64,000 bases of DNA, from NCBI GenBank assembly GCA_020057555.1, contig JAGVFR010000026.1, forward strand, positions 22,631 to 86,630. The letters run 5' to 3'. Of this stretch, positions 3,222 to 60,627 are shown in pieces (within the stretch, counting starts at the first letter, position 1; every line of letters begins with the position of its first letter). The translations under genes and the position numbers were made by a program. The notes beneath the pieces were generated by a model. It had not been told where the DNA came from. It saw only the letters and a list, made by a program, of their open reading frames with translations, and ran no database searches. Origin of the DNA: a bacterium. Lineage in GTDB: Bacteria; Patescibacteriota; Patescibacteriia; UBA9934; GWF2-40-263.

Positions 3222-4251
3222 TACAAGAACATATTACGCAATCGGGGCAATTGCCATCGCGATTGCGTTTTTGTTTGCGGCTTTGTTACCTGGGTTTTCA
3301 GGAAAAATTCGTCCTTTACTTACGTCTTCAGATGGCAGTTCTGACAAAGCGCCGGTTGGCCGTCATCCATTAACTGGTTTTCCTATTTATGAGCAAATGG
3401 AACTGCCACAGGTTTTTGGAGTCATGATAGATAATCATGTTGATGCTTGGCCACAAGCTGGAATTGATAGGGCATTTCTTGTGGTTGAGGCTCCTGTGGA
3501 AGCTGGAATTTCACGTTTTCTCGCGTTTTATTCAGATGATCAGGATGTGGATAAGATTGGTCCAGTTCGTTCAGCGCGTCCGTATTTTTTGGATTGGAAC
3601 AATGAACTGGATGGTTTATATGTTCATGTTGGAGGATCAGATTCAGTTCTTGATCAAATCTCCTCTGGCGGCACTTTTGATTTGAATCAGTATTGGTTTG
3701 ACTCCTATTTTTGGCGCGCGTTAAATCGTTATGCACCACATAACGTTTACACTTCTACAAAGTTGTTGAAGCGTTATGTTGGTTTTAAAGAACAAGCGGG
3801 AGTTGCGCTTAAACGATTGTATGATATCTGGAAATTTAAAGATGCTGATCTGTCTGGTGATGCAGAACTAAAAAATATTTCTGTTACGTTTGATGCGCCT
3901 TCTTATGTAACACAATGGATTTTTGATTTAGAAACACATCGGTATTTGCGTTCACAAAGCGGTTCTGTTCATTTGGTTGAAGACAAAACACAAATATCAT
4001 CTGACAACATTGTTGTAATTGTTACAGATGTTGAAATTTTGGATTCGGTTGGACGTCGGAGTATTCGAACAACAGGAGAAGGGAAGGTGTTCTTGTTTCG
4101 CGACGGAAAACAGTTTGAGGGGATTTGGAAAAAGGAATCGGAGAGTAACAGGCTTAAGTTTTACGATTCGAACGGTAATGAATTTGAATTGAATGCTGGA
4201 GTAACGTGGATTGAAGTGATTGCTGATGAATCGGATCTGGAAGTTGATTAA
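3169..4251 (+). CDS. DUF3048 domain-containing protein
   Basis: MIDNHVDAWPQAGIDRAFLVVEAPVEAGISRFLAFY block is typical of DUF3048, with an N-terminal TM helix. Start is uncertain: the ORF overlaps the rplY 3' end, and ATG 3196 is an alternative. Confidence 0.7.
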   Translation: MRKVLKNQLMKKLKLKFNTRTYYAIGAIAIAIAFLFAALLPGFSGKIRPLLTSSDGSSDKAPVGRHPLTGFPIYEQMELPQVFGVMIDNHVDAWPQAGIDRAFLVVEAPVEAGISRFLAFYSDDQDVDKIGPVRSARPYFLDWNNELDGLYVHVGGSDSVLDQISSGGTFDLNQYWFDSYFWRALNRYAPHNVYTSTKLLKRYVGFKEQAGVALKRLYDIWKFKDADLSGDAELKNISVTFDAPSYVTQWIFDLETHRYLRSQSGSVHLVEDKTQISSDNIVVIVTDVEILDSVGRRSIRTTGEGKVFLFRDGKQFEGIWKKESESNRLKFYDSNGNEFELNAGVTWIEVIADESDLEVD

Positions 4252-5159
4252 AGCTCACTGATTATTACCCGATCAAGACCTTGCAGGTCTTTTTTGATTT
4301 GGGTTTTTGCGCGTGGAAATTGGTGAGATATAAGTTCAACAGCACGAGTGGTTTGTGATGGGTCGATCTCTATGAGTGTGTAAATGTATCTAGGTAAAAT
4401 ATCCCGTTTTTTATTTATTTGCTTAAACAATCGCCAATACGCCTCAAGACCGTCAGGACCTGCTTGTAATGCGTCTTTTGGTTCGTAGCGAACATCTTTT
4501 TGAAGGGCATCCATCTGGTTGTTTGTGAGATATGGGAGATTGGCGCAAATTATTAGGTATTTGAACGGATAAATTGATGAAACTTGTTGTTTTGAAGACG
4601 CACGTATTGATTCGAATAAGTCAACGATTGGCATTAATAGGTCGCCTTCTCTGAAGTCAATAAGTTCTTCTACATTATGTTTGTGAGCGTTTGTTTTTGC
4701 TACTGAAAGTGCGCGAGGGTTTATATCTACAGCCACAACCGGAATTTTTGTTTCAGATGTAAGTGTGATCGCGATTGCTCCTGACCCAGTTCCTATATCA
4801 GTAAACAGTATGTGTTCTGGATCATTAATATTTGTTGATATATCTAATGCTTCTTGAACAAGCGTTTCAGTTGCTGGACGAGGAATAAGAACAAATGAGT
4901 TAACGAAGAAATTTCTATTGTAAAATTCTTTTTCTCCGATTATGTACGCAACAGGTTCAAATGAACAACGACGTTCGATGAGCGACAATAGTCGTTCCTG
5001 TTGATGTGGTTTTAGAATGTCATTTCCATGTGCAAACAGTCGAGCGCGTGATAAATCCAAAATATACGAAAGTATAACTTCCGCATCAAGCATTGACGAC
5101 TCAACGCCAGCTTTTTTGAGCTTGTTGTTTGCCCATTGAAGAGCTTCGAGGATGGACAT
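4248..5159 (-). CDS. prmC: peptide chain release factor N5-glutamine methyltransferase
   Basis: 303 aa HemK/PrmC architecture. SAM motif DIGTGSGAIAI. Substrate motif reads NLPY instead of canonical NPPY. Confidence 0.85.
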   Translation of the reverse strand: MSILEALQWANNKLKKAGVESSMLDAEVILSYILDLSRARLFAHGNDILKPHQQERLLSLIERRCSFEPVAYIIGEKEFYNRNFFVNSFVLIPRPATETLVQEALDISTNINDPEHILFTDIGTGSGAIAITLTSETKIPVVAVDINPRALSVAKTNAHKHNVEELIDFREGDLLMPIVDLFESIRASSKQQVSSIYPFKYLIICANLPYLTNNQMDALQKDVRYEPKDALQAGPDGLEAYWRLFKQINKKRDILPRYIYTLIEIDPSQTTRAVELISHQFPRAKTQIKKDLQGLDRVIISEL

Positions 5160-5267
5160 AGTAGGGAAGGTCGAAGAGGGCCAAGAAGACCAAAAGGTCC
5201 GAGAAGTTTCAAATGACCGAAAGGTCAGAAAGGTCGAGACAAGTATAGCAGAGTGAAAAATTTATCC

Positions 5268-5306
5268 ATAAAAAGAAAAGCGGCGCCGAACATAGTTCGA
5301 GCGCCG
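5268..5306 (-). terminator. intrinsic terminator of the candidate large ncRNA
   Basis: Minus strand: CGGCGCTCGAAC-TAT-GTTCGGCGCCG stem-loop (5306-5281) followed by CTTTTCTTTTT. Confidence 0.65.
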
Positions 5307-6348
5307 TAAGAAGAGAGAGGAGAGACCGAGTTCGGACTCTCAAGATGACGTGGTTTGCCCAGTGGTAGGGAGTGGGAACGACTCTTTGCGAAACGCTGTT
5401 CAGCATTCAGGATCTCCTTACGGAGCTCACTAAACACTTCACAATATCTCACTTTAAGTCAATTTCCACTCCCGAACCACTCCTTGTCGACATGCAACGC
5501 GCTTTCGTTTGTTGCTTCGTCTAGGGAACTGTTGCTTCCACAACTGGTTTTAAGGTGATGCCCCGAAGAGCTTCTCCAAAAAACTGGTTGTTTTAGCTTG
5601 AGTTTCAGGTTTTCACCTTGACTCCAGACCTTGTAACGGTTGTCGACTTGGCTCTGCAGAGCTATCAACGCCTTTGTCACTGCTCCCTGAAGCTTGCGCT
5701 TTTAGGTAGCGGTTTGGAAGGAGAAGAAAGTCTACAGATGGACTGATCAGTGGTGAGCTTAAGCTCGTGTTTTCACTCAGGTAGAGAGTTTATCCTTTTT
5801 ACAGGACTTATCTCTATTTATTCCTTCTCATTGGTTACCCTTTGAGAACACGATCATCGTTTCACTCAAACACAGAGGTAAACTGTGTCCAAGCTTGACA
5901 ACTTTCATGGACTGATATCCTCGAGGATTAATCGAGGACCACTGGTCTTTGCCGGTTTACACCGAGTCTCAAGTTTTTGAAGCCTGCTATGTGTTTTCGA
6001 TCAGCTATCACAGCTATTTGAACTCGAGTTACCCCAAGCTCACTTCGCTCTGGTGATAAACTAACCTTGCCAGCATTTTGGCTTCGCAACTTGTCCAGCT
6101 TTGTTTACTGATTCGTAGAGCACATTCTCTTGGGAGCCCTTTCGGGTTCTTCAGAAGACGTGTCTACGACACAGTTTCCGCTGGCATGATCCGGTTTTAG
6201 ACCGGCCGGCTTTTTTAAGCCGTTTGCTTGAAGGGTTTGACCAGTTTGCACCGGTACAGCCCTTTTCGCGACCCTCCCGAAGGAGAGTTCAGCCTTCCGA
6301 AGAAGGCCTTGTCTACCAGAGCAACTTACATTGCCTTGGCTGACGGTA
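5272..6348 (-). ncRNA. candidate large (~1.08 kb) structured non-coding RNA, class unknown
   Basis: Bounded by a sigma70-like promoter and an intrinsic terminator, with no credible ORF. Three C(UUCG)G hairpins (6292-6307, 6274-6285, 5560-5571). GAAA-capped hairpin 6134-6149. Further helices at 6191-6205 and 5918-5938. Confidence 0.55.
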
Positions 6349-6354
6349 ATGTTT

Positions 6355-6383
6355 AATTTACTCTTGAAAGAAACGTGTGTCAA
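6355..6383 (-). promoter_or_regulatory. sigma70-like promoter of the candidate ncRNA
   Basis: Minus strand TTGACA (6383-6378), 17-nt spacer, TAAATT (6360-6355). Confidence 0.5.
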
Positions 6384-6419
6384 GAGCTGTAAAATCGCTG
6401 GTTTTTGAAAAACTTGTCT

Positions 6420-6444
6420 ATTTATCCACAAAGTTGTGGATAAA
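6420..6444. promoter_or_regulatory. inverted pair of perfect DnaA-box nonamers (11-bp-arm palindrome)
   Basis: TTATCCACA at 6422-6430 and TGTGGATAA at 6435-6443. The whole TTTATCCACAA-AG-TTGTGGATAAA is palindromic. It lies about 40 bp upstream of the ncRNA -35 box. Confidence 0.45.
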
Positions 6445-6453
6445 TTTAAAAAA

Positions 6454-6524
6454 GAGCGGTTGTGCTATGTCTCCGTGCCAGCGGACTCCTCGCCGCTGTT
6501 CACTTCGACATAGCACAACCGCTC
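6454..6524 (-). repeat. conserved-core hairpin element, copy 1 (acts as prfA terminator)
   Basis: Outer stem GAGCGGTTGTGCTATGTC / GACATAGCACAACCGCTC. Core AACAGCGGCGAGGAGTCCGCTGGCACGGAGACAT on the minus strand. Followed on the minus strand by TTTTTT. Confidence 0.65.
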
Positions 6525-6537
6525 TAATTAACGATCT

Positions 6538-7605
6538 TTATTGATCTAATTGCTCCGCGATTTCAGCTTCTCTTAATGCGGAAAATAATTCATCGAGGCC
6601 GCCATTCATAAAAGTGGTGATATTGTGAAAGTTTTCATTTATACGATGGTCTGTGATTCGATCTTGCGGAAAATTGTATGTTCGAATCTTTTCTGATCTG
6701 TCTCCGGTTCCGATTTGTCCTTTTCGAGCATCACCACGTTCCTTGTGGGCTTTTTCTTGTTCAAAAGCAAACACACGCGCGCGAATAATCGAAAGAGCAC
6801 GTTCTTTGTTTTGTTTTTGTGAACGTTCTTCTTGGCAAGAAGCCATTATTCCAGTTGGAATGTGTGTGATGCGTATTGCCGAGTAGGTTGTGTTTACACT
6901 CTGTCCGCCATGGCCACCTGCTGTTGTTGCCTCGATGTTTAGATCTTCCGGTTTGATTTGCACATCAATTTCTTCAACTTCAGGCAAGATCGCGACTGTT
7001 ACAGTCGATGTATGCACACGACCTTGTTTTTCCGTTTCTGGCACGCGTTGAACTCTATGAACCCCGCTTTCGTATTTGAGTCGGCTATAAACATTATGGC
7101 CTTTGATTGTCAAAATAATTTCTTTGAATCCTCCGATTTCGTTTCTGTTGGATGAAATGAGTTCTGTTTTCCATGCATGTTGTTCTGCATAAAGCATGTA
7201 CATACGCATCAGTTCTGCGGCAAAAAGCGAGGCCTCGTCTCCTCCAGCGCCGGCTCGAATTTCAACGATTGTATTTTTTTTGTCCAGAGGATCAGATGGA
7301 ATAAGCGAATGCAAGAGTTCTTTTTCAAGTAACGGGAGCTTTGCTTCCAGAGTTTCAATTTCAGTTTGCGCAAGTTCATGCATTTGTTCGTCTGTTGATT
7401 CTTTGAGTGTTTCTTTTGCTCCGTTTAAATCTACCATGACTTTTTCATATCGTTTTGCAACGTCCATGACTTCTTTTAGATCTGAATATTCTTCACTTAC
7501 TTCACGCATTTTTTTTGGATTAGAAAGAACTTCGGGTGAAGATAACTTCAATTCGAGTTCTTGGAATCGGTTTTTTGTTGATTGTAGTTTATCGAGTAAA
7601 GACAT
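6538..7605 (-). CDS. prfA: peptide chain release factor 1
   Basis: 355 aa with GGQ motif (GGHGGQSVNT). Codon-recognition tripeptide region reads RVQRVPETEKQGRVHTS (P-x-T type, RF1-like). Confidence 0.9.
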   Translation of the reverse strand: MSLLDKLQSTKNRFQELELKLSSPEVLSNPKKMREVSEEYSDLKEVMDVAKRYEKVMVDLNGAKETLKESTDEQMHELAQTEIETLEAKLPLLEKELLHSLIPSDPLDKKNTIVEIRAGAGGDEASLFAAELMRMYMLYAEQHAWKTELISSNRNEIGGFKEIILTIKGHNVYSRLKYESGVHRVQRVPETEKQGRVHTSTVTVAILPEVEEIDVQIKPEDLNIEATTAGGHGGQSVNTTYSAIRITHIPTGIMASCQEERSQKQNKERALSIIRARVFAFEQEKAHKERGDARKGQIGTGDRSEKIRTYNFPQDRITDHRINENFHNITTFMNGGLDELFSALREAEIAEQLDQ

Positions 7606-8089: not shown

Positions 8090-9181
8090 ATGACACAAAT
8101 TACAGAATTCAATTATCATCTTCCAAGAGAGTTAATCGCACAATGCTCTGTCCAGCCTCGCGACCAATCACGGCTCATGGTTTTGGATAAACAAACAGGG
8201 AAGTTGAACCACAAGAAATTTTTTGAGATTGTTGATGAGTTGAAAACAGGTGATGTACTTGTATTTAATGATACAAAAGTTTTTAGAGCCCGGCTCAAGA
8301 CGCAAAATGGAATTGAGATATTTTTGTTGCGTGCGCGGGAAGACGATATTTGGGAAGTTTTGGCGCGTCCGGGAAAGAAGTTGCAGGTTGGACAAACACT
8401 TTGTATTGAACATGAAACAGAAAAACTTTGTGGAGAAGTGATGTCAAAACAATCAGACGGAACTGTTTTGATAAAATTTGATCGCGTACCAAATGACGTA
8501 ATCGCGTTTGCAAATATATACGGAGAGATTCCTATTCCTCCTTATGTGAAAAATATACCGGAGCGATTGGAAGATTATCAAACGATCTATGCAAAAGAGA
8601 CAGGTTCTGTTGCGGCGCCAACAGCCGGTTTTCACTTCACAGAAGATCTTATGGAAGAATTAAAATCAAAAGGCGTGCAATTCGAATTTGTAACACTTCA
8701 CGTTGGAATTGGAACTTTTCGTCCAATGAAAACAGAAACGATCGAGGAACATGAAATGCACAGCGAGTTTGTTTCTGTCTCAAAAGAGACAGCAGATCGG
8801 ATCAATCAAGCAAAAAAAGATGAGCGACGCGTGATCGCTGTTGGAACGACAACAGTTCGTACACTTGAAGGAGTCGCAAATTATCCCCTGAGCGAAGGTC
8901 AATTAGGCCTTCGACAGGCTCAGGCAATAATTGACCGAAGTCGAATGGGTAATTTTTATCTTCCAGATGGTTTTACAGGCGACGTTAATCTATTTATCAA
9001 ACCAGGCTTTGATTTCAAAATAATTGATGGGCTTATAACGAATTTTCATTTACCAAAATCAACATTACTGGTTTTGGTTTCGGCTTTTGCTGGAAGAGAA
9101 AATGTTTTGCGCGCGTATGAAGAAGCAGTTGCGCAACAGTATCGTTTTTTTTCCTTTGGCGACGCGATGTTTATTGCTTGA
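8090..9181 (+). CDS. queA: S-adenosylmethionine:tRNA ribosyltransferase-isomerase
   Basis: 363 aa with QueA blocks TAGFHFT, TLHVGIGTFRP, AVGTTTVRTLE, ITNFHLPKSTLL and YRFFSFGDAMFI. Carries an in-frame repeat-element insertion at about 8885-8950. Confidence 0.9.
   Translation: MTQITEFNYHLPRELIAQCSVQPRDQSRLMVLDKQTGKLNHKKFFEIVDELKTGDVLVFNDTKVFRARLKTQNGIEIFLLRAREDDIWEVLARPGKKLQVGQTLCIEHETEKLCGEVMSKQSDGTVLIKFDRVPNDVIAFANIYGEIPIPPYVKNIPERLEDYQTIYAKETGSVAAPTAGFHFTEDLMEELKSKGVQFEFVTLHVGIGTFRPMKTETIEEHEMHSEFVSVSKETADRINQAKKDERRVIAVGTTTVRTLEGVANYPLSEGQLGLRQAQAIIDRSRMGNFYLPDGFTGDVNLFIKPGFDFKIIDGLITNFHLPKSTLLVLVSAFAGRENVLRAYEEAVAQQYRFFSFGDAMFIA
8885..8950 (+). repeat. MITE-like palindromic element inserted in-frame in queA (copy A)
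   Basis: Arms CCTGAGCGAAGG / CCTTCGACAGGCTCAGG. The 26-mer GCCTTCGACAGGCTCAGGCAATAATT (8907-8932) is identical to 57312-57337 and 25/26 identical to 34816-34841. Confidence 0.7.
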
Positions 9182-27246: not shown

Positions 27247-27861
27247 TTATACTGGTCTAAATTGTCGGATAACTGCGCGAACTACGCCCTGAATAATACA
27301 ATCTTTTACGTATATAGGATTCATTGTGCTGTTTGCAGGTTGAAGACGTATACGCCTTTGCTCTCGATAAAATCGTTTCAATGTTGCATAAGCATTATCA
27401 AGCAAAGCAACAACCACTTCGCCGTTTTTTGGTGATGGATTGCGTTCAATGACAACATAATCACCATCTAGAATTCCGTCTTCAATCATTGAACGTCCTT
27501 TTACACGAAGAACAAATGAATTTGCTCCATCAAGCACGAAAGTTGCTGGCACAGCCATTGTTTCTCGATCTTCAACAGCCTCGATTGGCTCTCCTGCCGT
27601 GATCAAACCAAGCATTGGCAGAAGAACTGAAGGTTCATCCTGTTCCGACGATACAAGTTCGATTGATCTTGCTTCTCCTTCATCACCGACTGTTATTTCT
27701 CCTTTTTCAACAAGAGTTTGAATATGAGTATAAACAGTGGCAGGGGATGAAAGTCCAAAGTGTTCACCGATCTCTCTGTATGATGGTGCGTAACCTCGAT
27801 TTTTTATGTGTGTACGAATGTGGGCGAGAATTTCTGCTTGTTTTTTTGTAAGAGGAGGCAT
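27247..27861 (-). CDS. lexA: LexA repressor
   Basis: N-terminal wHTH (YREIGEHFGLSSPATVYTHIQTL). S24 peptidase domain with VKGRSMIEDGI and downstream Lys (LKR). Confidence 0.9.
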   Translation of the reverse strand: MPPLTKKQAEILAHIRTHIKNRGYAPSYREIGEHFGLSSPATVYTHIQTLVEKGEITVGDEGEARSIELVSSEQDEPSVLLPMLGLITAGEPIEAVEDRETMAVPATFVLDGANSFVLRVKGRSMIEDGILDGDYVVIERNPSPKNGEVVVALLDNAYATLKRFYREQRRIRLQPANSTMNPIYVKDCIIQGVVRAVIRQFRPV

Positions 27862-27879
27862 ATTTTGAAAGTTTTAGTT

Positions 27880-27921: not shown

Positions 27922-28067
27922 GCAAGAGGCAGATTGTGGATAAGTATGGGAGAGTAGATAAGTAGTAGAGTAGCAAAGTAGAAAAGGGAATTGATTGGTG
28001 ATTTTACTGCAAATTTTTCAACCCTCTGCTACTATGCTACTCTTCTACTCTGCTACTTTTTTATCCT

Positions 28068-29117
28068 ATGTTCAAAACAGTTGAATCAGTAACAATGGGC
28101 CAACCTGACAAAGTCTGCGATCAAATCGCTGAAGCTATTGTTGATGAGTATTTACGTCGTGATACACATGCAAATGTTGATATTCATGTTTTTGGAGCAC
28201 ACGGAATGTTAATGGTCGGTGGCGAGGTAAATTCAAGCGCTGATTTTGATATTGGAGCGCTTGCCAAAAAAGTCTATCAGGAAATTGGTTATCCAGATGA
28301 CATTGAAGTTTTTGTGAATATAGAAACACCATCTGAAGAAATGAAGCATGTTAAAAACGGTGTGCGCGATACAATTGTAATAAACGGATACGCAACAAAT
28401 GAAACACGCGAACGTTTACCAAGAGCTGTTGTTTTCGCACATACGCTAGCGCGAAGACTTGATGATTTGCGCAAAACCGATCCTAAGTTTTCATGGATGA
28501 AACCAGATGGAAAAGTTCAAATTTCAATGCAAGGCGATCGTGTGCAAGCCGTAACAGTTTTAGCCTCGCATCACGTCAGCATTGAAGCGAGAGATGTAAA
28601 AACAGCATTGCTTGAACGTCTTGTCATGCCAGCGATTGGCGAAGACGCTGTGCAGATTTTTATCAATCCTATTGGGGAATTTACTGTTGCAGGATTTCGA
28701 GGTGATTCAGGCGCGAGCGGTAGGAAAATTTGTGTTGATACATACGGCGGTCTTATTCCTCATGGCGACAAGTCGTTTGTTGGAAAAGATCCATTGCGCG
28801 CAGAACGAGCCGGCTCATTCATGGCAAGATATGTTGCTCGTGATCTTGTTGAGCAAGGATTGGCCGCTTCAGTTTTGGTGAACGTTGTTTATACGATCGG
28901 AAAAGCAGAGCCGATTTATATCAACGCAACAGGTGTGTGTGGAAAATCTCAAGGCGGAAAAATTGATTTGACTGATGTTGTAAAACAGAAATTCGATTTT
29001 CGTCCTGAAGCAATTGTTGAACGTTTGCAACTTTGTCAGCCAATATATCAGAGAATGGCAGTGTATGGATATTTTGGTCGAGAAGGTGCACCTTGGGAAT
29101 TAAAAGTGATACAATAG
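28068..29117 (+). CDS. metK: S-adenosylmethionine synthetase
   Basis: ESVTMGQPDKVCDQIAEAIVDEY (variant of the GHPDK motif), DSGASGRK and DTYGG blocks. Shorter than typical MetK. Confidence 0.85.
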   Translation: MFKTVESVTMGQPDKVCDQIAEAIVDEYLRRDTHANVDIHVFGAHGMLMVGGEVNSSADFDIGALAKKVYQEIGYPDDIEVFVNIETPSEEMKHVKNGVRDTIVINGYATNETRERLPRAVVFAHTLARRLDDLRKTDPKFSWMKPDGKVQISMQGDRVQAVTVLASHHVSIEARDVKTALLERLVMPAIGEDAVQIFINPIGEFTVAGFRGDSGASGRKICVDTYGGLIPHGDKSFVGKDPLRAERAGSFMARYVARDLVEQGLAASVLVNVVYTIGKAEPIYINATGVCGKSQGGKIDLTDVVKQKFDFRPEAIVERLQLCQPIYQRMAVYGYFGREGAPWELKVIQ

Positions 29118-53174: not shown

Positions 53175-54341
53175 ATGGAAAAGGAGGTTAACTTTTTACA
53201 CGATTCTCATTCAGCAATTTTTGCGATTGATGCTTCTTCGGCTAATAAAGATAAACGAACAGGAGTTGAGAATTACGCGTTTCATTTGATTGAAGCAATG
53301 AAAAAAGAACCGCTCAAGGTGGGAGAGCGTGTTGTTTTATTTTCACCAACTCCTTTGCAAGGAACACTTGCACAAATGCCAAGCAGTTGGGAATCACGTG
53401 TTCTTGGTTGGAAATTGAAGCGCGGATGGATGCAATTGCGTGTGAGCTGGGAATTGCTACGACGTCGGTCGTCAGTTTTTTTTGTACCGGCGCAAGGAAT
53501 TCCAAATTTTTCATTTCGTGTTTTAATTGTCACAACGATTCATGACATTGCTTTTCGTCGTATTGGAAATTTATATAGTTCGTCAGTTCGAAAACGTGTC
53601 GCGTCTGCAACATCACGCGCAATAAAAAAAGCAGAGCATCTTATTAGTGTTTCTCAATTTACAAAAGAAGAATTGAAAACCGTTTACAATGTTTCTGAAA
53701 CAAAAATTACAGTCACTCCACTTTCTGCGGCAACAGAAATATACAAACGTTTAGACGCGAAAGCGATCGAATTGGTTTTACAAAAATACCGTTTGGGTCA
53801 TAATTTTTTCTTGTTTGTCGGACGATTGGAAAAAAAGAAAAGCGTTTCAACAATTATTCGAGCGTTTGAGTTGTTCAAACAGAATCGCGGAATGGGAGAT
53901 CCCTTTGAGCTTGTGCTTGTTGGTGAGCAAGGATTTGGGTATGAGGAAATTAGAACGTGCGTTGAACGTTCACCACAACGAACACTGATTCGCGAAGTCG
54001 GTTATCTTTCTGATCAAGAAGTTTCTGCACTGATGAATGTCTCGACCGCATTATTGTTTCCATCATTATATGAAGGATTTGGAATTCCAAACCTTGAAGC
54101 AATGGCTTGCGGAACAGTTTTGTTAACATCGGATATTCCAGTTCATCACGAAGTCGCAGGCCCTGCCGCGATTTATATTTCACCCAAAGACCCAGAGTTG
54201 TGGGCAAAGCAAATGACTCGACTGGTAGCTGATCCACTGCTCCGCGAACGATTGATTGAAAATGGAAGTATTCGTGTTGCAGAATTTTCTTGGGAGAAAA
54301 CCGCAAAACAGACATGGGAAGTTCTGCGTAGTTTGGTATAA
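53175..54341 (+). CDS. glycosyltransferase family 4 (GT-B)
   Basis: Start refined to ATG 53175. C-terminal EGFGIPNLEAMACG motif. Confidence 0.8.
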   Translation: MEKEVNFLHDSHSAIFAIDASSANKDKRTGVENYAFHLIEAMKKEPLKVGERVVLFSPTPLQGTLAQMPSSWESRVLGWKLKRGWMQLRVSWELLRRRSSVFFVPAQGIPNFSFRVLIVTTIHDIAFRRIGNLYSSSVRKRVASATSRAIKKAEHLISVSQFTKEELKTVYNVSETKITVTPLSAATEIYKRLDAKAIELVLQKYRLGHNFFLFVGRLEKKKSVSTIIRAFELFKQNRGMGDPFELVLVGEQGFGYEEIRTCVERSPQRTLIREVGYLSDQEVSALMNVSTALLFPSLYEGFGIPNLEAMACGTVLLTSDIPVHHEVAGPAAIYISPKDPELWAKQMTRLVADPLLRERLIENGSIRVAEFSWEKTAKQTWEVLRSLV

Positions 54342-54371
54342 TCACTCCATTACTCCATCACTTTTTAATCT

Positions 54372-55148
54372 ATGGACGAATTAATGAACGAACTCAAGCA
54401 TTTAGGTTTATCTGACAAAGAGGCGTCTGTTTATCTTGCATCGCTTGAACTTGGCCCAGCTTCTGTGCAAGACATATCGCACAAAGCAAAAATAAATCGC
54501 GCGACAACATACGTGATGATAGAGGTATTGTCAGGACGTGGACTTCTTTCAACTTTTGTAAAAGGGAAGAAACGTTTTTACGCGCCAGAAAGTCCTGATC
54601 GATTGATTTCCATTTTACGCGTGCAACAGAAAGAACTTGAAGAAAAAGAAAAAGAGTTTGCAAAGTCGCTTCCATTGTTGCTCGCGCTTTATAATGCTGA
54701 AGGAGCAAAGCCGCAGATTCGATATTTGGAAGGGCCAGAAGGATTGCGATCTTTGCGTCAGACTTTTGAAAAATTGAATGGGGAATTTGTTCAGATTCTT
54801 TCGATTGACGATGCGTTGGCAACAAGAGAACTAATGGAAGAAAGTCCGAAACATGTTTCCGCTCTTCGACAAGCAAGCACTTCTTATAGAATTTTGGCAG
54901 TTTTAGATAAGAAGGAACCAAAAGATATTCCGGAGATGGGAACAGGCGAAATTAGAATGGTTCCGTTTTTGGAGTTTCCAATGCACGGTGAGATTACCGT
55001 GCGAGGAAATCATGTGTTTTTGTTTTCATATCGTTCAGCAGTTTTGGCTGTTGTGATTGTAAGTAAAGAGGTCGCTGATGCGGCTCGGGCATTGTTTGAG
55101 CTTGCTTGGAAAGGAGCAAAAGATTTTCAATCAAGAATGGATAAATAA
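54372..55148 (+). CDS. TrmB-family transcriptional regulator
   Basis: N-terminal LGLSDKEASVYLASLELGPASVQDISHKAKINRATTYVMIEVL wHTH, typical of TrmB. Confidence 0.7.
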   Translation: MDELMNELKHLGLSDKEASVYLASLELGPASVQDISHKAKINRATTYVMIEVLSGRGLLSTFVKGKKRFYAPESPDRLISILRVQQKELEEKEKEFAKSLPLLLALYNAEGAKPQIRYLEGPEGLRSLRQTFEKLNGEFVQILSIDDALATRELMEESPKHVSALRQASTSYRILAVLDKKEPKDIPEMGTGEIRMVPFLEFPMHGEITVRGNHVFLFSYRSAVLAVVIVSKEVADAARALFELAWKGAKDFQSRMDK

Positions 55149-55526
55149 CAAAATAGGACCGAGTGTGGTCCGTTGTTGAGAGAGATAAGATATGAGAGAA
55201 GCGCAACAATGTGCGCGAGAGCTTTTTTATGTGAAGCTAGAAAAGGAGCTACGATCCGAGAGCACAATGCATGTGCGGTTGGAGAAACGCCGGATTGAAC
55301 CGACGCGGGTTGAGTTCGTTTGCGTACGTTTTGAGAACCATTCCTGCTTCCATTTTATTACCTCGGACTTTGCCGGCTTGGCCTGCCGGCCAGGCATCTC
55401 ATCCAAAACTTTTAGGATGAGAATATACTCTAGCAATTTTTGTTGATTTTGTCAAGCCAATTGGACTGACTAAGAAGAATTTGGAGAATTTGTTGATATT
55501 TATTAACATATTTTGTCCTGTGACCA

Positions 55527-55555
55527 TTGACAAGCAAAAGATTATTTGATAGTTT
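55527..55555 (+). promoter_or_regulatory. candidate promoter of a small RNA
   Basis: TTGACA (55527-55532), 17 nt, TAGTTT (55550-55555). Confidence 0.35.
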
Positions 55556-55561
55556 GGTCGG

Positions 55562-55707
55562 TTCACTCAAGAAGTGGGCAATGAGGAAGAGAGGACATAA
55601 AACCGACCAACTCCCAATGGCCGGTTTTATCTTAGTCGAAACATGGTACATGGGTTCATGTGTGTGATAAACAAAAAGACGTCCTGTAAACAGGGCGTCT
55701 TTTTTTT
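55562..55707 (+). ncRNA. candidate ~145-nt small RNA, class unknown
   Basis: Lies between the candidate promoter and the terminator at 55678-55707. 5' helix GGTCGGTT / AACCGACC. No ORF. Confidence 0.3.
55673..55707. terminator. bidirectional intrinsic terminator
   Basis: AAAAA-GACGTCCTG-TAAA-CAGGGCGTC-TTTTTTTT (9-bp stem with one G-U). Confidence 0.65.
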
Positions 55708-55717
55708 GGGAAAGAGC

Positions 55718-55837
55718 TATAGCCATCACATTATAAAATGGGACTTTAGACGACTTACCTGTGGATGGGATGCGAAGGACAAGCAGACCGCCACAGGAAA
55801 GGATGGATAAATCCTATTTCATAATGTGATGGCTATA
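55718..55837. repeat. 120-nt hairpin/MITE-like element with 17-bp perfect terminal inverted repeat
   Basis: TATAGCCATCACATTAT (55718-55734) / ATAATGTGATGGCTATA (55821-55837). Inner helices CCTGTGG/CCACAGG (55758-55764/55791-55797) and AGGAT/ATCCT. Confidence 0.6.
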
Positions 55838-55861
55838 CAGTCTTGCGACCGCGCGGTCGTT

Positions 55862-55957
55862 GGACATTACATTATGATTCCGTACTTATAAAGATGAAAA
55901 ACAAGCAGGTTGCCATTTTTAATTTTTTATGGAGTATGGAACCATAATGTAATGTCC
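55862..55957. repeat. 96-nt hairpin/MITE-like element with 20-bp terminal inverted repeat (1 mismatch)
   Basis: GGACATTACATTATGATTCC (55862-55881) / GGAACCATAATGTAATGTCC (55938-55957). Shares CAT(C/T)ACATTAT with the neighbouring element. Confidence 0.6.
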
Positions 55958-56186
55958 ACATTCCTCTCACAGGTCTTCATTGCAAGCATGGAGCAATGGA
56001 AAACTGTGATTGGAGGGCGACGTTGGAAAGATATCCTTCGTCGCCCAAGAGTTTGCCTTCTCGGCTGGAGGCTCTGCTTCCTCTTGGCTCACCGTTTTAG
56101 GAAGGTGACTCCTTTTTGTCGCGTGTTTCAGATTGTAGTGGAATGTGTTAACTCACTTTGCCCTCCTAAATGTTTGGTTTTTTTGG

Positions 56187-57176
56187 CTACGAGAGCATGG
56201 CCTGGAGCTTGAGCTCGGCCATACGGATCACGCCAGGAACCGTCCAGTTCTTGATCGCACGGACGTCCGCGGCGGTCAGACCAGAGTTGCGAATTTTGAT
56301 AGCCGCGCGACCGAGTTGACGGTACTCGTCCTTGCTCACGCCCGGGACGATCTTGCCCTGAACGCGGCGTGGCGGACGAACCAGACCTAGACCGCATGCG
56401 AGCAAACTTCCGTCGCGCAGGGTTTCGACGTGCGAGCGAGTTTCGGCGATTCTTGCGTCAACGCGTTCTTCGGCCTCGCGCTGAAGCCGTGCTTCCTCGG
56501 TCGCTCTCTCGTCCGCGAACATATTCTCGATTGCCGCCATTGCCTCGGGCACGGTCTGCGATCCGAGCGGCAGAACGGTCTGTGCGCACTTGGGGCAGAA
56601 CGACTTCTGAAGGAGACCATGAACGGTCACCTCCTCGAGCCTCTTGACCCCGATAGCGCGCATGATTGTGCTGAACACGACCGCGACCCTTGCCTCGTTC
56701 ATCGGAACGAGTCGCAGACACTGTCCGAACTTTCCCTGACAGACCACGTGGTCCACGCCGTCCTTCGCAATGACGAGTCCCGGGGTGAACCTGACCTCGG
56801 GCTCGAGAACGGGCTCGGGCGCTGGAGCGGGTGCGGCGGGAGCCTTCTTGGTCTCGGCCTTGTGGACCTTGACCTTCGCCGGCTTCGGTGTCTCGACCTT
56901 CGGAGCCGGGGACGGGTTGGCCTCGGTCTTGGGCGAGACGATCTCCTTGGCCATGATTTCGACAGCCTCGATCGAGGAGCAATCCCTCCAGTTCTGGCCC
57001 GTGACCTCGATGATGTGCATGGCGCGACCGAGCTCGACGTGGGATGCGAGGAAGTTGATCGAGCCCTCGAAGTGACGCTCAACCACACGGCCGAGCTCTT
57101 CGAGTTCGCCAGGGAGACCGGGGCGGGAGTCGTCCTGCGGGATGATCTGAAGTCCGGGAGCCATCTGCGCGACCAT
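56187..57176 (-). CDS. hypothetical protein, very GC-rich orphan (Pro/Ala-rich linker)
   Basis: ORF 56187..57197. Start refined to ATG 57176 behind GGAGG. Strong G/C preference at third codon positions. Linker PSPAPKVETPKPAKVKVHKAETKKAPAAPAPAPEP. No family recognised. Confidence 0.6.
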   Translation of the reverse strand: MVAQMAPGLQIIPQDDSRPGLPGELEELGRVVERHFEGSINFLASHVELGRAMHIIEVTGQNWRDCSSIEAVEIMAKEIVSPKTEANPSPAPKVETPKPAKVKVHKAETKKAPAAPAPAPEPVLEPEVRFTPGLVIAKDGVDHVVCQGKFGQCLRLVPMNEARVAVVFSTIMRAIGVKRLEEVTVHGLLQKSFCPKCAQTVLPLGSQTVPEAMAAIENMFADERATEEARLQREAEERVDARIAETRSHVETLRDGSLLACGLGLVRPPRRVQGKIVPGVSKDEYRQLGRAAIKIRNSGLTAADVRAIKNWTVPGVIRMAELKLQAMLS

Positions 57177-57289
57177 GCGTAACCTCCAAAAAAGCATGTG
57201 TCCTGGGTCCCGAACCTACACCACGTAGGAACGGATCAATTTATAGAACCTATCGGTCCTACGACCTTAGCAGTTTGGAAATTGTTATA

Positions 57290-57338
57290 CCTTGAGCGAA
57301 GGAAAATTACTGCCTTCGACAGGCTCAGGCAATAATTT
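57290..57338 (+). repeat. MITE-like palindromic element (copy E) between the two GC-rich genes
   Basis: CCTTGAGCGAAGG...GCCTTCGACAGGCTCAGGCAATAATT. The 26-mer is identical to the copy inside queA. Confidence 0.7.
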
Positions 57339-57463
57339 GCCGGAGTCGGAGGGTTAGATTCAATTTCTAAACTATTAAGATCGTTCCGGGTGGCGTGTTC
57401 AGGGAAAGAAATCCCTTTACACACCACCCGGAAGATATAGAGCGGAGAGAGCGGAAAGAACTA

Positions 57464-58003
57464 CTAGCCGTTGGCGACCTTGCGGGCCTTGCCCTTGACG
57501 GTCACGATCGGCGTCTCGACGGCGGCGGGAGCCTCGGCGGGCGTGGAGACCGGAGCCGGTGTCACGGCGACCGCGGCCTTGAGCTCGGCCACAACCTGCG
57601 GGCCGACCTGCTCACCGATCGGGGTCGAGGCGAGAGCAGGCTTGGCGGGTGCGGAAGCGGCGGGCTTGGGCGTGAGCTTCGGCGCGGGCTTCTCGGACTT
57701 GGACTTCGGGAAGTAGGACATCGTGTTGACCATGTCCTTGAAGTCCAGGAGCGGTGCGAGGGCCGAGTTCTGCCCCATGCCGTGCTCGATGTTGTCGATG
57801 GCCTTCGTGAGAAGGGCCTTTCCGACGTCTTCGATGCAGCGCATGGTGTAGTACTCGGTGCCGACGTAGTCGTCGCGCTTCTCCGGGTCGAGGCCGAGCA
57901 CCTCGCACGCCTTCGCGAAGATCTTGTCGCGCAACTCCCTTTCGAAGATGCGTCCGTAGAGCGGGGAGGGATCGGTCGAGGGGGCCTGGAAGCTGGTCTT
58001 CAT
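57464..58003 (-). CDS. hypothetical protein, very GC-rich orphan (Pro/Ala-rich C-terminal half)
   Basis: 179-codon ORF behind AAGGAGA. Codon third positions are almost all G/C near the 3' end. 45/60 G+C hand-counted at 57481-57540. No family recognised. Confidence 0.6.
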   Translation of the reverse strand: MKTSFQAPSTDPSPLYGRIFERELRDKIFAKACEVLGLDPEKRDDYVGTEYYTMRCIEDVGKALLTKAIDNIEHGMGQNSALAPLLDFKDMVNTMSYFPKSKSEKPAPKLTPKPAASAPAKPALASTPIGEQVGPQVVAELKAAVAVTPAPVSTPAEAPAAVETPIVTVKGKARKVANG

Positions 58004-58464
58004 TGAAATTCTCCTTTTCGATGGCCTGCCTCCAGCCGAACCTGACCCCTGTGGTCAAATCCGCTTTCAGCTCGATGACGGCAAATGTTGTCACCATTGA
58101 GCTGAATCGGATTTTCCCAGAAATACGGAGGTAAAGTGTGACCCATTGACCTGCCCGAAGGCTGGTGTAGATCGTGAGTCTCTTGCGTATGAATTCAGTC
58201 AGCCTAGGCCGAATGAACACATTTGAGACTCTCTGCCAATGTCGTCTTGTAAGACTCGATTGGACAGCTTTACTCTCTCCTCCGTGTTTCTGGGTCGGTT
58301 TTTAACAAAAAACCGGTTGTCGTATATATCTGATCTTTTTGGCAAGAGTCAGACGTACACAACAACCGGTTCTTTTATTCAAAGAATGGCTATTGACTAC
58401 CTTTATACCGTGGGTAGTGCACGGACTCTCTCCCAAAAGTCCTATTTGTAAGAATCATCTTAAC
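58004..58464 (-). promoter_or_regulatory. ~460-nt structured 5' leader of the GC-rich gene pair
   Basis: 16-bp helix 58279-58294 / 58116-58131 (one mismatch) encloses 147 nt. Adjacent hairpin 58057-58114. Internal C(UUCG)G-type loop. Upstream terminator-like hairpin 58311-58371. Confidence 0.4.
58304..58371 (-). terminator. terminator/attenuator-like long hairpin inside the leader
   Basis: AACCGGTTGT (58362-58371, read on the minus strand) pairs with ACAACCGGTT (58311-58320), followed on the minus strand by TTTTTGTT. Confidence 0.45.
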
Positions 58465-58470
58465 GGTCAT

Positions 58471-58499
58471 ACTATATCATATTCTGTCAAAACTGTCAA
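58471..58499 (-). promoter_or_regulatory. sigma70-like promoter for the island transcript
   Basis: Minus strand TTGACA (58499-58494), 17 nt, TATAGT (58476-58471). Confidence 0.5.
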
Positions 58500-58573
58500 G
58501 ACCCGTATGTCGGTGAGGTTAGAATTTTAGCTAAAATTAGACAAAAGCTACTGTCAGGATTTTTTAGACTTAT

Positions 58574-58618
58574 CACTCCGTCACTTCTTCACTCCGTCAC
58601 TTCTTCACTCCGTCACTT
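58574..58618 (+). repeat. 16-bp tandem repeat, 2.8 copies
   Basis: CACTCCGTCACTTCTT x2 plus CACTCCGTCACTT, ending 21 nt before the holB start. Confidence 0.85.
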
Positions 58619-58639
58619 TGTGTTACACTAAAATCTGTT

Positions 58640-59563
58640 ATGGAACCTTTTTCTAAGACGATCGGCCACAAAACGGCACGACAAGTGTTTTTGCGCATGA
58701 TAGAAAACAACCAGCTTCCGCATGCGATTCTTTTTGTTGGTCCAAAACATGTTGGGAAAACTCATCTTGTCACAGAATTGATCCAGCATCTTTTTCATAC
58801 AATACGTCATCCATCGCTCATTTCCGATGTTAGTCTTTTAGCAAGAGAAGTTGATCCAAAAACAGGCAAGAAAAAATTCGCTATTTCTGTTAAACAAGTT
58901 CGTGCTCTTGTTGAACGTCTTTCAATGACTCCAATGGAAGGAAATTGGAAAATCGCGTTCATTCAAGAAGCTGATCGGCTTTCGATCGGAGCCGCGAATG
59001 CGCTTCTCAAAACACTTGAAGAACCAAAAGGAAACGCTCTTATAATTTTACGCGCGCCAAGTGTTGAATCTGTTTTGCAAACAATCGCGTCTCGTTGTCA
59101 GATTTTTCGACTGTCGCCTGTTGCCAAATCAGAAATTATTCCAGCGCTTCAAAAACGTGGGCTTTCAAAAACAGAAGCAGATGAAATTTCAGAGCGATCT
59201 TTTGGTTGTCCGGGAATTGCGATTCGATATATTCAAGATAGTGAAATGCGCGCGCGCAAAGAAACAGCGATCGCGCAAGTCGAAACTTTAATGAACGCGT
59301 CGCTTCCAGAGCAATTTAGATTAGTTTTTGATCTCATTCCAAAAACAGAAATTGACAAGTCTATTGCACTTTCTCATTTGCTCGATGATTGGTCAGAAGT
59401 GTTGCGCGCGAATTTATTAAAAACAGTCGCTGAAAAGCAAACAGCAACCGTGAATAAAACCGCTCGCGTTCTAAATTGTATTCAAACTGTTCGTAGCGCG
59501 ATTTCTCACAACATAAATCCTCATTTATCTTTAGAACATATTTTTTTATCAACACATGTATGA
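58640..59563 (+). CDS. holB: DNA polymerase III subunit delta prime
   Basis: HAILFVGPKHVGKT P-loop-like region and AANALLKTLEEP motif. Confidence 0.8.
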   Translation: MEPFSKTIGHKTARQVFLRMIENNQLPHAILFVGPKHVGKTHLVTELIQHLFHTIRHPSLISDVSLLAREVDPKTGKKKFAISVKQVRALVERLSMTPMEGNWKIAFIQEADRLSIGAANALLKTLEEPKGNALIILRAPSVESVLQTIASRCQIFRLSPVAKSEIIPALQKRGLSKTEADEISERSFGCPGIAIRYIQDSEMRARKETAIAQVETLMNASLPEQFRLVFDLIPKTEIDKSIALSHLLDDWSEVLRANLLKTVAEKQTATVNKTARVLNCIQTVRSAISHNINPHLSLEHIFLSTHV

Positions 59564-60627
59564 AAAAATCTTTTTACCCAATTCTTTCAGTTGTACTTTT
59601 ACTTATTCTTCTTGGCGCTGGTTGTTCTGGGATTGGCGGAAAAGGAAGTAAAGCTCCAGACGGCGGTGTGTTCAAAACATCAGACGCTGGAAAAACTTGG
59701 GTTACAGCAAACATTGTTCCGACTGCTCAAGGAATTGGAACACTTGCCACAACAAATGTTATTAGCATGGAAGTAGACCCACAAGATAACGGTGTATTTT
59801 TTCTTGGTTCTCGCGAAAGCGGAGTGTTGTACAGTGATGATGCAACAGCTTCATGGAAACTTCCTCGTCAAGCAGTTTTGAAAGAAGGCTCTGTTTACGC
59901 GGTTGAAGTTGATCCATTTGACCGTTGCACTGTTTACATTGCTAAAGGTTCGCGACTTTATAAATCAACGGATTGTTTGCGAACGATTGATGATGAAACT
60001 TATGTTGAAACACGTTCTGGAGTTTCAGTTGTCAGACTTGCGCTTGATTGGTACACACAAGGAACGATTTGGATTGGTTTGAACAATGGTGATGTGCTTA
60101 AAAGCACTGATGCTGGAAAAACTTGGAAATCTGTGTTGAAGCTTGGAAAGGAAGTTTCTCAAATCATCATTAGCAACAAAGACAGTCGACAAATAATTAT
60201 TACGTCGTACGCACTTGGATTTCAACGCACATCAGATGGTGGAGACAACTGGGAAAAAGTCGGTGGCGATGCAATAAAATTGAATGGCGCACAGCAAGTT
60301 TATTCACTTATACAAAATTCGGATGCATCTGTTGTGTTGGCCGCGACAAAGTATGGAATTTTGCGCAGTAAGGATTTTGGTTTGAATTGGGAAGCGCTTA
60401 AACTTCTGACATCGCCAGGACAAGTTGTAATTCGCGCTTTAGGAATTTCACCAAAAGATGCAAACACAATTTATTACGCTGTTAATTCAACATTCTTTCA
60501 TTCAACAGATGGAGGGCAAACATGGCAAACACAAAAATTTCCGAGTTTGCGTGTGCCGCGAACTCTGATAATTGATCCTAAAGATTCTGCGGTGGTATAT
60601 GTGGGAGTCGCGGAGGCAACCGAATAA
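59560..60627 (+). CDS. BNR/Asp-box repeat beta-propeller lipoprotein
   Basis: Lipobox LLGAGCSG. Five S/TxDxGxxW boxes (TSDAGKTW, STDAGKTW, TSDGGDNW, SKDFGLNW, STDGGQTW). Confidence 0.65.
   Translation: MKKSFYPILSVVLLLILLGAGCSGIGGKGSKAPDGGVFKTSDAGKTWVTANIVPTAQGIGTLATTNVISMEVDPQDNGVFFLGSRESGVLYSDDATASWKLPRQAVLKEGSVYAVEVDPFDRCTVYIAKGSRLYKSTDCLRTIDDETYVETRSGVSVVRLALDWYTQGTIWIGLNNGDVLKSTDAGKTWKSVLKLGKEVSQIIISNKDSRQIIITSYALGFQRTSDGGDNWEKVGGDAIKLNGAQQVYSLIQNSDASVVLAATKYGILRSKDFGLNWEALKLLTSPGQVVIRALGISPKDANTIYYAVNSTFFHSTDGGQTWQTQKFPSLRVPRTLIIDPKDSAVVYVGVAEATE

Follow-up and report, generated by a model that had tools for sequence, protein, structure and literature searches.

A putative non-coding transcription unit between prfA and prmC

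We analyzed a stretch of 64,000 nucleotides (nt), below called the window (contig JAGVFR010000026.1, positions 22,631 to 86,630, assembly GCA_020057555.1), from a bacterium that its prfA relatives assign to Candidatus Uhrbacteria, a lineage of the Candidate Phyla Radiation (CPR). On the minus strand of the window, prfA (7605..6538) and prmC (5159..4248) are separated by a gap of 1.38 kb, in which a first-pass annotation had placed a promoter-to-terminator unit of ~1,080 nt without coding signal. Our analysis confirmed this unit, which we treat as an RNA gene of 1,083 nt (5268..6350, minus) that extends from the putative start site through the U-tract. It is preceded by a sigma-70-type promoter (6355..6383, minus; -35 TTGACA at 6383-6378, 17-nt spacer, -10 TAAATT at 6360-6355) and ends in an intrinsic terminator (5268..5306, minus) whose stem, 5306-5281, is followed by CUUUUCUUUUU; promoter and terminator were both found exactly where the annotation had put them. 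The promoter match is not significant by itself (7 sites versus 6.3 expected); its position is conserved at all 13 loci described below. The upstream edge of the unit is formed by the intrinsic terminator of prfA (6453..6525, minus), a 19-bp perfect inverted repeat followed by a T-run.

We found no sign that the unit encodes a protein. The longest open reading frame (ORF) has 108 amino acids (6105..6431, minus) and, as the first-pass annotation had remarked, starts upstream of the -35 box. Each of the three minus-strand frames contains 17-20 stop codons. The organism uses the standard code, since long ORFs elsewhere in the window use all three stops; a coding sequence hidden under genetic code 4 or 25 was rejected, since with TGA as a sense codon 7-13 TAA/TAG stops per frame remain. 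In an unambiguous alignment of three close relatives (81-86% identical), substituted columns were distributed 87/78/90 over the codon phases, showing no 3-nt periodicity, and indel lengths (e.g., 53, 38, 19, 5, 2, and 1) were not multiples of three. BLASTP comparison of stop-free stretches of at least 50 amino acids, from both strands of all members, detected no protein similarity between clades, and no Pfam domain was found. The search for a hidden coding sequence that had been proposed as a check yielded no conserved protein. Antisense ORFs of 113-244 amino acids in G+C-richer homologues were also discarded, as they share no similarity and are not conserved; these stop-free stretches arise because the sense strand, which is also A-rich, is U-poor (17-23% U). 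The G+C content of the unit is 47.5%, compared to 39-41% both in the flanking genes and in the window overall, and the earlier local counts (36/60 at 6241-6300, 21/60 at 5761-5820) were reproduced. In being non-coding and longer than 500 nt, the unit matches large structured bacterial non-coding RNAs.

The unit recurs at the same site in other Uhrbacteria

Homologous loci were collected via prfA relatives and one DNA-pattern scan of metagenomes. The RNA element was found between prfA and prmC, on one strand, at 13 distinct loci, namely, the window and 12 loci of other Uhrbacteria. The carriers are L002, L039, and L048 (prfA 92-94% identical), L014 (76%), L032, L053, L015/L016, L051, and L017/L018 (70-73%), L056 (68%), L004 (66%), and L046. 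Short members of ~680-745 nt occur in L056 (~680 nt), L046, L051, and L004, and the remaining members measure 900-1,154 nt. A promoter and a terminator surround the RNA in all complete members, each of which ends in a terminator hairpin with a T-run. The homologue search that the first-pass annotation had suggested recovered conserved units at the same prfA-prmC site. The RNA is absent from four Uhrbacteria. Of these, L055 has prfA and prmC 10 nt apart, which supports the earlier view of an autonomous RNA gene inserted into an otherwise adjacent gene pair; in L052 the spacer measures 200 nt, in L054 an NTP-transferase gene and then prmC leave no room for the element, and L005 has a 217-amino-acid ORF in the same position.

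The family proved difficult to follow by sequence search. With the window RNA as the query, nhmmer matches in distant members were confined to the initial 140-190 nt, largely promoter, which means that sequence search alone under-detects the family. A covariance model trained on the three close relatives detected the 3′ domain of L032 (E ∼1e-5) and missed L014 even with filters off; its other matches were reverse-strand hairpins. The metagenome scan, whose pattern combined the promoter and the 5′ motif, gave 32 loci, only 4 of them real; members with another -10 element, for example L051 and L056, escape this pattern. In viral contigs we found no copy of the RNA, the pattern scan giving 4 chance matches.

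Extra genes at three loci (L015, L053, and L056) always lie on the prfA side of the RNA and never in the RNA-prmC interval. An NTP-transferase gene occupies the prfA-prmC spacer in L015 (5071-5775), L054 (4579-5235), and L056 (1737-2396), and because it recurs with or without the RNA, this spacer is a recurrent insertion site. In L053, a 256-amino-acid ORF without a Pfam domain (4638-5408, minus) lies between prfA and the RNA, with DnaA boxes on both sides. L002 carries an insert of ~270 nt between the RNA terminator and prmC (8420-8690), with a long inverted repeat at its ends (tattatcaaatat ... atatttgataata); this insert could represent a miniature mobile element or a further structured element. 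Upstream of prmC, several Uhrbacteria share the motif AAAACGGCGATCTTTCGTCTCATGGGGCC (L051, 5385-5420 and 5500-5535; L032, reverse strand, ~2935-2965), including L052 (4585-4615), which lacks the large RNA. Six independent assemblies (L001, L003, L012, L013, L039, and L048) have breaks that fall in the RNA gene or right next to it; the breaks, located for instance 22-84 nt past prfA or 230 nt inside the RNA, fit strain-level variation in helix insertions or uneven coverage.

DnaA boxes are part of the conserved promoter region

Members share CTTGAC, a spacer of 15-17 nt, and a (G)TAnnnT -10 element, with the 5′ motif of the RNA at a fixed distance of 4-5 nt after the -10. In the window, an inverted pair of exact DnaA boxes, TTATCCACA-n4-TGTGGATAA (6422..6443, unstranded), lies 39-60 nt upstream of the -35. 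Each locus has one or two boxes (TTATCCACA or its complement), and in 12 of the 12 loci tested the 150 nt ahead of the -35 contain at least one box with no more than one mismatch; in L056, outside this test, an upstream box was seen by eye. The 12 loci together have 18 boxes in these 1,800 nt, or 10 per kb, a density ∼25-fold higher than the background of 0.39 per kb found across these loci, and the spacers of relatives without the RNA contain none. The promoter of the first-pass annotation was thus borne out, although the DnaA boxes that belong to its conserved region had been overlooked. Boxes placed at the promoter are also, at the level of sequence, what is seen in the DnaA regulon, and DnaA probably modulates the RNA promoter.

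Between the DnaA boxes and the -35 lies a conserved upstream element, TTTTTCAAAAACC (6400..6412, minus). L004, L017, L039, and L048 have it too, L015 has a variant, and L002 and L014 lack it. The element may serve as a binding site or resemble an UP element. An imperfect DnaA box, TTATCCATA (5262..5270, plus), is located just past the RNA terminator and forms with 6420-6432 a 13-nt direct repeat around the RNA unit. Because it is absent from the other members, this box is probably no general feature. We considered terminal repeats of a mobile element and rejected them, the flanking repeat being a DnaA box that is found in the window only. A replication origin was dismissed as well, since the GC skew is positive over the whole 64 kb and does not switch at the RNA locus. 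In the window as a whole, exact DnaA 9-mers number 4, versus ∼0.5 expected; those elsewhere are at 3546-3554, in a gene neighbouring prmC, and at 27935-27943, between lexA (27247-27873, minus) and metK (28002-29117, plus).

Base-pairing is under selection on one strand

We next consider the evidence that selection acts on the RNA. Both halves of the unit fold much more stably than dinucleotide shuffles, with minimum free energy (MFE) z-scores of -7.1 (3′ half) and -10.4 (5′ half); none of 100 shuffles was as stable. RNAalifold applied to the three-sequence alignment predicted 317 pairs, with 95.9% of cells paired. Of these pairs, 26 changed on both sides, compared to 2-3 in controls slid by 1-3 columns and 11.8 ± 2.4 in shuffles, none of 500 of which reached the observed value. 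In a hand-aligned five-helix skeleton of 11 sequences, 97.3% of cells were paired and both sides had changed in 14 of 25 pairs; the slid controls gave 0-1, and again 0 of 500 shuffles reached the observed number. Among these changes, the arm helix AGUGG/CCACU becomes AAUGG/CCAUU in L053 and GGUGC/GCACU in L051, CGGGAG/CUCCCG becomes CAGGAG/CUCCUG in L004, and UCAG/CUGA becomes CUAG/CUAG in L051 and UCGG/CCGG in L004; compensatory changes in the arm were found in L053, L051, L004, L046, and L056. An unguided analysis of 12 arms (MAFFT plus RNAalifold) also recovered the outer arm helix, AGUGG/CCACU, with 4 of 5 pairs doubly changed. On distant full-length RNAs and on 3′ domains, MAFFT misaligned the variable helices, and RNAalifold kept 15 and 5 pairs, respectively. 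Compensatory changes of the kind that mark large structured bacterial non-coding RNAs are thus present, subject to the alignment caveats given below.

Tetraloops identify the strand. In the MFE folds of the members, the sense strand has 197 predicted hairpin loops, 90 of them GNRA (58) or UNCG (32), compared to 1 of 189 for the antisense strand. The same sense strand is indicated by the abundance of G-U pairs and by the promoter and terminator. Taken together, covariation, z-scores, and strand-specific tetraloops support the large structured non-coding RNA that the first-pass annotation had suspected.

Anatomy of the predicted RNA

The RNA starts with a conserved 5′ motif, AUUACCGUCAG (6340..6350, minus), whose family consensus is RUUACSNUCAG; L051 has the variant UAAUACCGCUAG. 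A first hairpin with a GNRA loop, GUC.GCCA..GCAAU-GUAA-GUUGC..UGGU.GAC, is predicted at 6311..6344 (minus), and an alternative pairing would join UCAGCC (6343-6338) to GGCUGA (6294-6289). Two adjacent hairpins capped by C(UUCG)G follow (6270..6307, minus), and the UUCG hairpin helix has one compensatory change, U-A to C-G, in L002. All three C(UUCG)G hairpins of the first-pass annotation (6292-6307, 6274-6285, and 5560-5571) were found again, as were its GAAA hairpin (6134-6149) and its helices at 6191-6205 and 5918-5938. The two duplicated motifs that it had listed, ATGGACTGAT and TTTCACTCA, are at the positions given; the modular or pseudo-symmetric architecture that it had read from them did not hold up, as the copies are strands of different predicted helices.

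The 3′ half of the fold is predicted to contain a junction domain, CCAA-GUCGACA...UGUCGAC-AAGG (5482..5651, minus), that encloses a multi-branched subdomain and a small hairpin. In the long type, CCAAnUCGACA pairs with a GUCGA located ~140-200 nt downstream; the UCGAC/GUCGA strands are invariant in 8 of 8 long-type members and, because they never vary, are uninformative either way. Next comes a long irregular arm (5361..5481, minus) with a variable tip, closed by AGUGG/CCACU and GGGAGUGG/CCACUCCC. In both types, GGAGUGG-n-CGGGAG opens this irregular arm of 60-125 nt and CUCCCG-n-CCAYUGG closes it. The arm was found in each member's own MFE fold, and the architecture of junction plus arm was reproduced when members were folded singly. 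The 3′ end has the order arm, small hairpin in a CU-rich tail, and terminator hairpin with a U-tract. In the window the small hairpin is GAGAG...CUCUC (5320..5341, minus), and a hairpin of other sequence occupies the same place in L002, L014, L015, L017, L032, L051, L053, and L046. A stretch of L053 resembling a strand of the RNase P helix P4, GAGGAAAGUCC, was rejected as a local hairpin that is absent from the other members.

Neighbouring genes and other features of the window

The local gene order is rplY, DUF3048, prmC, RNA element, prfA, rpmE, and queA, and the neighbour genes rpmE, prfA, prmC, rplY, rpsB-tsf, and queA are all translation-related. Between the RNA terminator and prmC, we noted a candidate extended -10 promoter for prmC, TGCTATACT (5242..5250, minus), as read from the sequence; TGnTAnnnT elements also occur 3′ of the RNA terminator in L002, L014, L017, L046, and L053. 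The 5′ region of prmC (5165-5235, minus) has four copies of GACCUU(U/C), cgaccttt, tgaccttt, ggaccttt, and cgaccttc, within a CU-rich stretch. Farther away, positions 54000-60000 form a G+C-rich island (0.51 versus 0.40) with spurious overlapping ORFs on both strands. Its ORFs at 56187-57197 and 57464-58003 (both minus) encode Pro/Ala/Lys-rich linkers and have no Pfam domain, and the island looks like foreign DNA and not like an RNA gene.

Comparison with known RNAs

We compared the element with Rfam 15. The whole window gave no match at gathering thresholds, and positions 5000-6700 searched at E ≤ 10 gave chance-level matches only. At eight homologous loci, no family reached E ≤ 5 inside the element and none recurred at a consistent position; the weak overlaps with the element were isolated matches to two microRNA and long non-coding RNA models, in L046 only. 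As the first-pass annotation had supposed, RNase P, tmRNA, SRP, 6S, introns, OLE, ROOL, and GOLLD all went unmatched, also at permissive thresholds. ARAGORN detected no tRNA or tmRNA in the 64-kb window, and for omega-RNA/HEARO we found neither an Rfam match nor an IscB or TnpB gene in any examined locus. Our literature search, with partial coverage of subscription journals, returned no large RNA described in Uhrbacteria or Patescibacteria or at prfA-prmC.

To our knowledge, only a handful of bacterial non-coding RNAs >500 nt lack a known function, namely, OLE, GOLLD, ROOL, HEARO, and raiA, and the Uhrbacteria RNA is, as had been proposed, as large as or larger than any of the known giants. 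Three of these five form RNA-only assemblies (PMC12286853). The likeness to OLE RNA (RF01071) is that of a large, stand-alone RNA with an intricate fold, confined to one lineage and with no established biochemical function, in which conserved sequence blocks are separated by variable helices. OLE is ∼600 nt long, occurs in Bacillota, and is linked to oap genes (PMC9723947, PMC11332333), whereas the Uhrbacteria RNA is 680-1,154 nt long, has prfA and prmC as neighbours, and does not match the OLE model at the gathering threshold or at E ≤ 10. GOLLD (RF01998, ∼800 nt) and ROOL (RF03087, ∼580 nt), which are of comparable or smaller size, share with it an ornate, tetraloop-rich, multi-domain fold and the status of a functional orphan. 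They are often found in prophages and beside tRNA genes and form homo-oligomeric cages (PMC12286853); the Uhrbacteria RNA, in contrast, matches neither model and has a fixed chromosomal site, no tRNA within the 64 kb, and no copy among the viral contigs scanned. With bacterial RNase P RNA and other large ribozymes (group I/II introns) it has in common a conserved junction core, peripheral helices that vary and carry GNRA or UUCG caps, and a length that changes by gain or loss of whole helices. The conserved sequence cores of RNase P RNA and introns were, however, not detected in it. It is two to three times larger than RNase P RNA, and unlike introns it has no flanking exons and no intron-encoded protein, but its own promoter and terminator between complete genes. 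The upstream region resembles DnaA-regulated promoters such as those of dnaA and sda in model bacteria in having 9-mer TTATCCACA boxes just ahead of a sigma-70-type promoter, and differs in that the putative regulated product is a large non-coding RNA. We know of no precedent for a large non-coding RNA regulated by DnaA.

DISCUSSION

We conclude, with a probability of roughly 0.85, that the prfA-prmC spacer encodes a stand-alone, highly structured non-coding RNA of ∼1,080 nt in the window that belongs to a family not previously catalogued. Non-coding status, family conservation, base-pairing, strand, and the conserved promoter, DnaA boxes, and terminator were established computationally. RNA polymerase would start at about position 6350 from the sigma-70-type promoter, with modulation by DnaA through the upstream boxes. 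The transcript would begin with RUUACSNUCAG in a 5′ domain rich in GNRA- and UUCG-capped hairpins, continue through a variable central region, and form a 3′ domain from the UCGAC/GUCGA junction and the arm closed by AGUGG/CCACU and CGGGAG/CUCCCG. Transcription would stop at the intrinsic terminator past the CU-rich tail, and prmC would be expressed from its own downstream promoter, TGCTATACT.

Several points weigh against this conclusion or limit it. The discrete transcript, its ends, and its stability are deduced from sequence motifs alone. The structure of the three close relatives was tested on the alignment from which it was derived, which inflates the paired fraction and affects the double changes much less, and the five-helix skeleton was aligned by hand; both choices favour the structure. 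The global fold is a prediction in which several long-range helices are invariant among the three close relatives, and in the clade of the window the partner of the 5′ UCAG is ambiguous, since the predicted pairings with 6311-6318 and with 6289-6294 are mutually exclusive. The covariance model found only one distant member, L032, and missed L014, so that for the central region the case for deep homology is one of motifs and architecture. Only a subset of Uhrbacteria carries this narrow family, and its presence is patchy. Finally, the translation-gene neighbourhood is the sole functional hint, and the invariable site just ahead of prmC would also fit a role in cis.

Such a role would make the element a giant 5′ leader of prmC, whose terminal hairpin acts as a regulated attenuator with read-through setting prmC expression. 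The element does lie directly upstream of prmC on the same strand at 13 of 13 loci; no extra gene ever intervenes, and in L046 the distance from the U-tract to the prmC ATG is only ∼27 nt. Yet a separate candidate promoter (TGnTAnnnT) follows the terminator in the window, L002, L014, L017, L046, and L053, the RNA-prmC spacers (60-350 nt) are variable and not conserved, and relatives without the element still express prmC. The terminators are strong, and no conserved alternative pairing was seen, although not in a systematic test; no known leader comes near such size or complexity. We therefore regard a cis-acting leader as improbable. Less likely still is a highly diverged GOLLD, ROOL, OLE, RNase P RNA, group I/II intron, or omega-RNA beyond the reach of narrow Rfam models. 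Covariance models do weaken on divergent lineages such as the CPR, and our own three-sequence model missed members of the same family. Against this stand the lack of any Rfam family recurring at a consistent position in the eight homologous loci and of any tRNA or tmRNA in the window, the viral contigs without a copy, and the absence of an adjacent IscB, TnpB, reverse-transcriptase, or OapA-like gene and of the interrupted host gene that an intron would need.

The two remaining explanations deny the RNA a role. That the locus acts as DNA, through its DnaA boxes in titration or as an origin-like site with an incidental transcript, could account for the boxes upstream in every member and for the imperfect box past the terminator in the window. 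Each member has only one or two boxes, however, the GC skew does not switch, the region is G+C-richer than its flanks and not A+T-rich, and the compensatory changes and strand-specific tetraloops show selection on the RNA, so we hold this to be very unlikely. The least credible explanation is a decayed gene or mobile-element remnant. Presence in some Uhrbacteria and absence from others, the 13-nt direct repeat around the unit in the window, and the several assemblies that break at or near the element all speak for it; but there is no conserved ORF, codon periodicity, or cross-clade protein similarity, the flanking repeat is a DnaA box absent from other members, and the element is always at the same site, with no second copy in the window. 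Nor would a decaying sequence preserve its helices by compensatory change.

Returning to a stand-alone structured RNA, it most likely acts in trans as a stable ribonucleoprotein (RNP) scaffold or a ribozyme, by analogy with what has been proposed for other orphan large RNAs; a conserved core, variable peripheral helices, and many tetraloops are the pattern of such molecules. Among specific roles, we favour the RNP scaffold, at slightly less than even odds, and consider a ribozyme less than half as likely. Some other role is a little less probable than a ribozyme, and an RNA-only assembly and cis control of prmC are each a minor prospect. A bolder proposal, that the RNA is the first CPR-specific giant class, a DnaA-tied ribozyme or self-assembling machine of up to ∼1.15 kb serving translation termination or the ribosome in a cell with a minimal genome, is speculative and in our estimate unlikely.

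OLE, GOLLD, ROOL, HEARO, and raiA each led to unexpected biology. The Uhrbacteria RNA is experimentally tractable, with a fixed genomic address, a defined promoter and terminator, and natural length variants that outline a minimal core. Its conserved DnaA boxes suggest that replication status is linked to a structured RNA, a connection without a precedent known to us. For ultra-small bacteria whose genomes are reduced, maintaining 1 kb of DNA without coding function is costly, and the RNA is therefore probably important to the cell.

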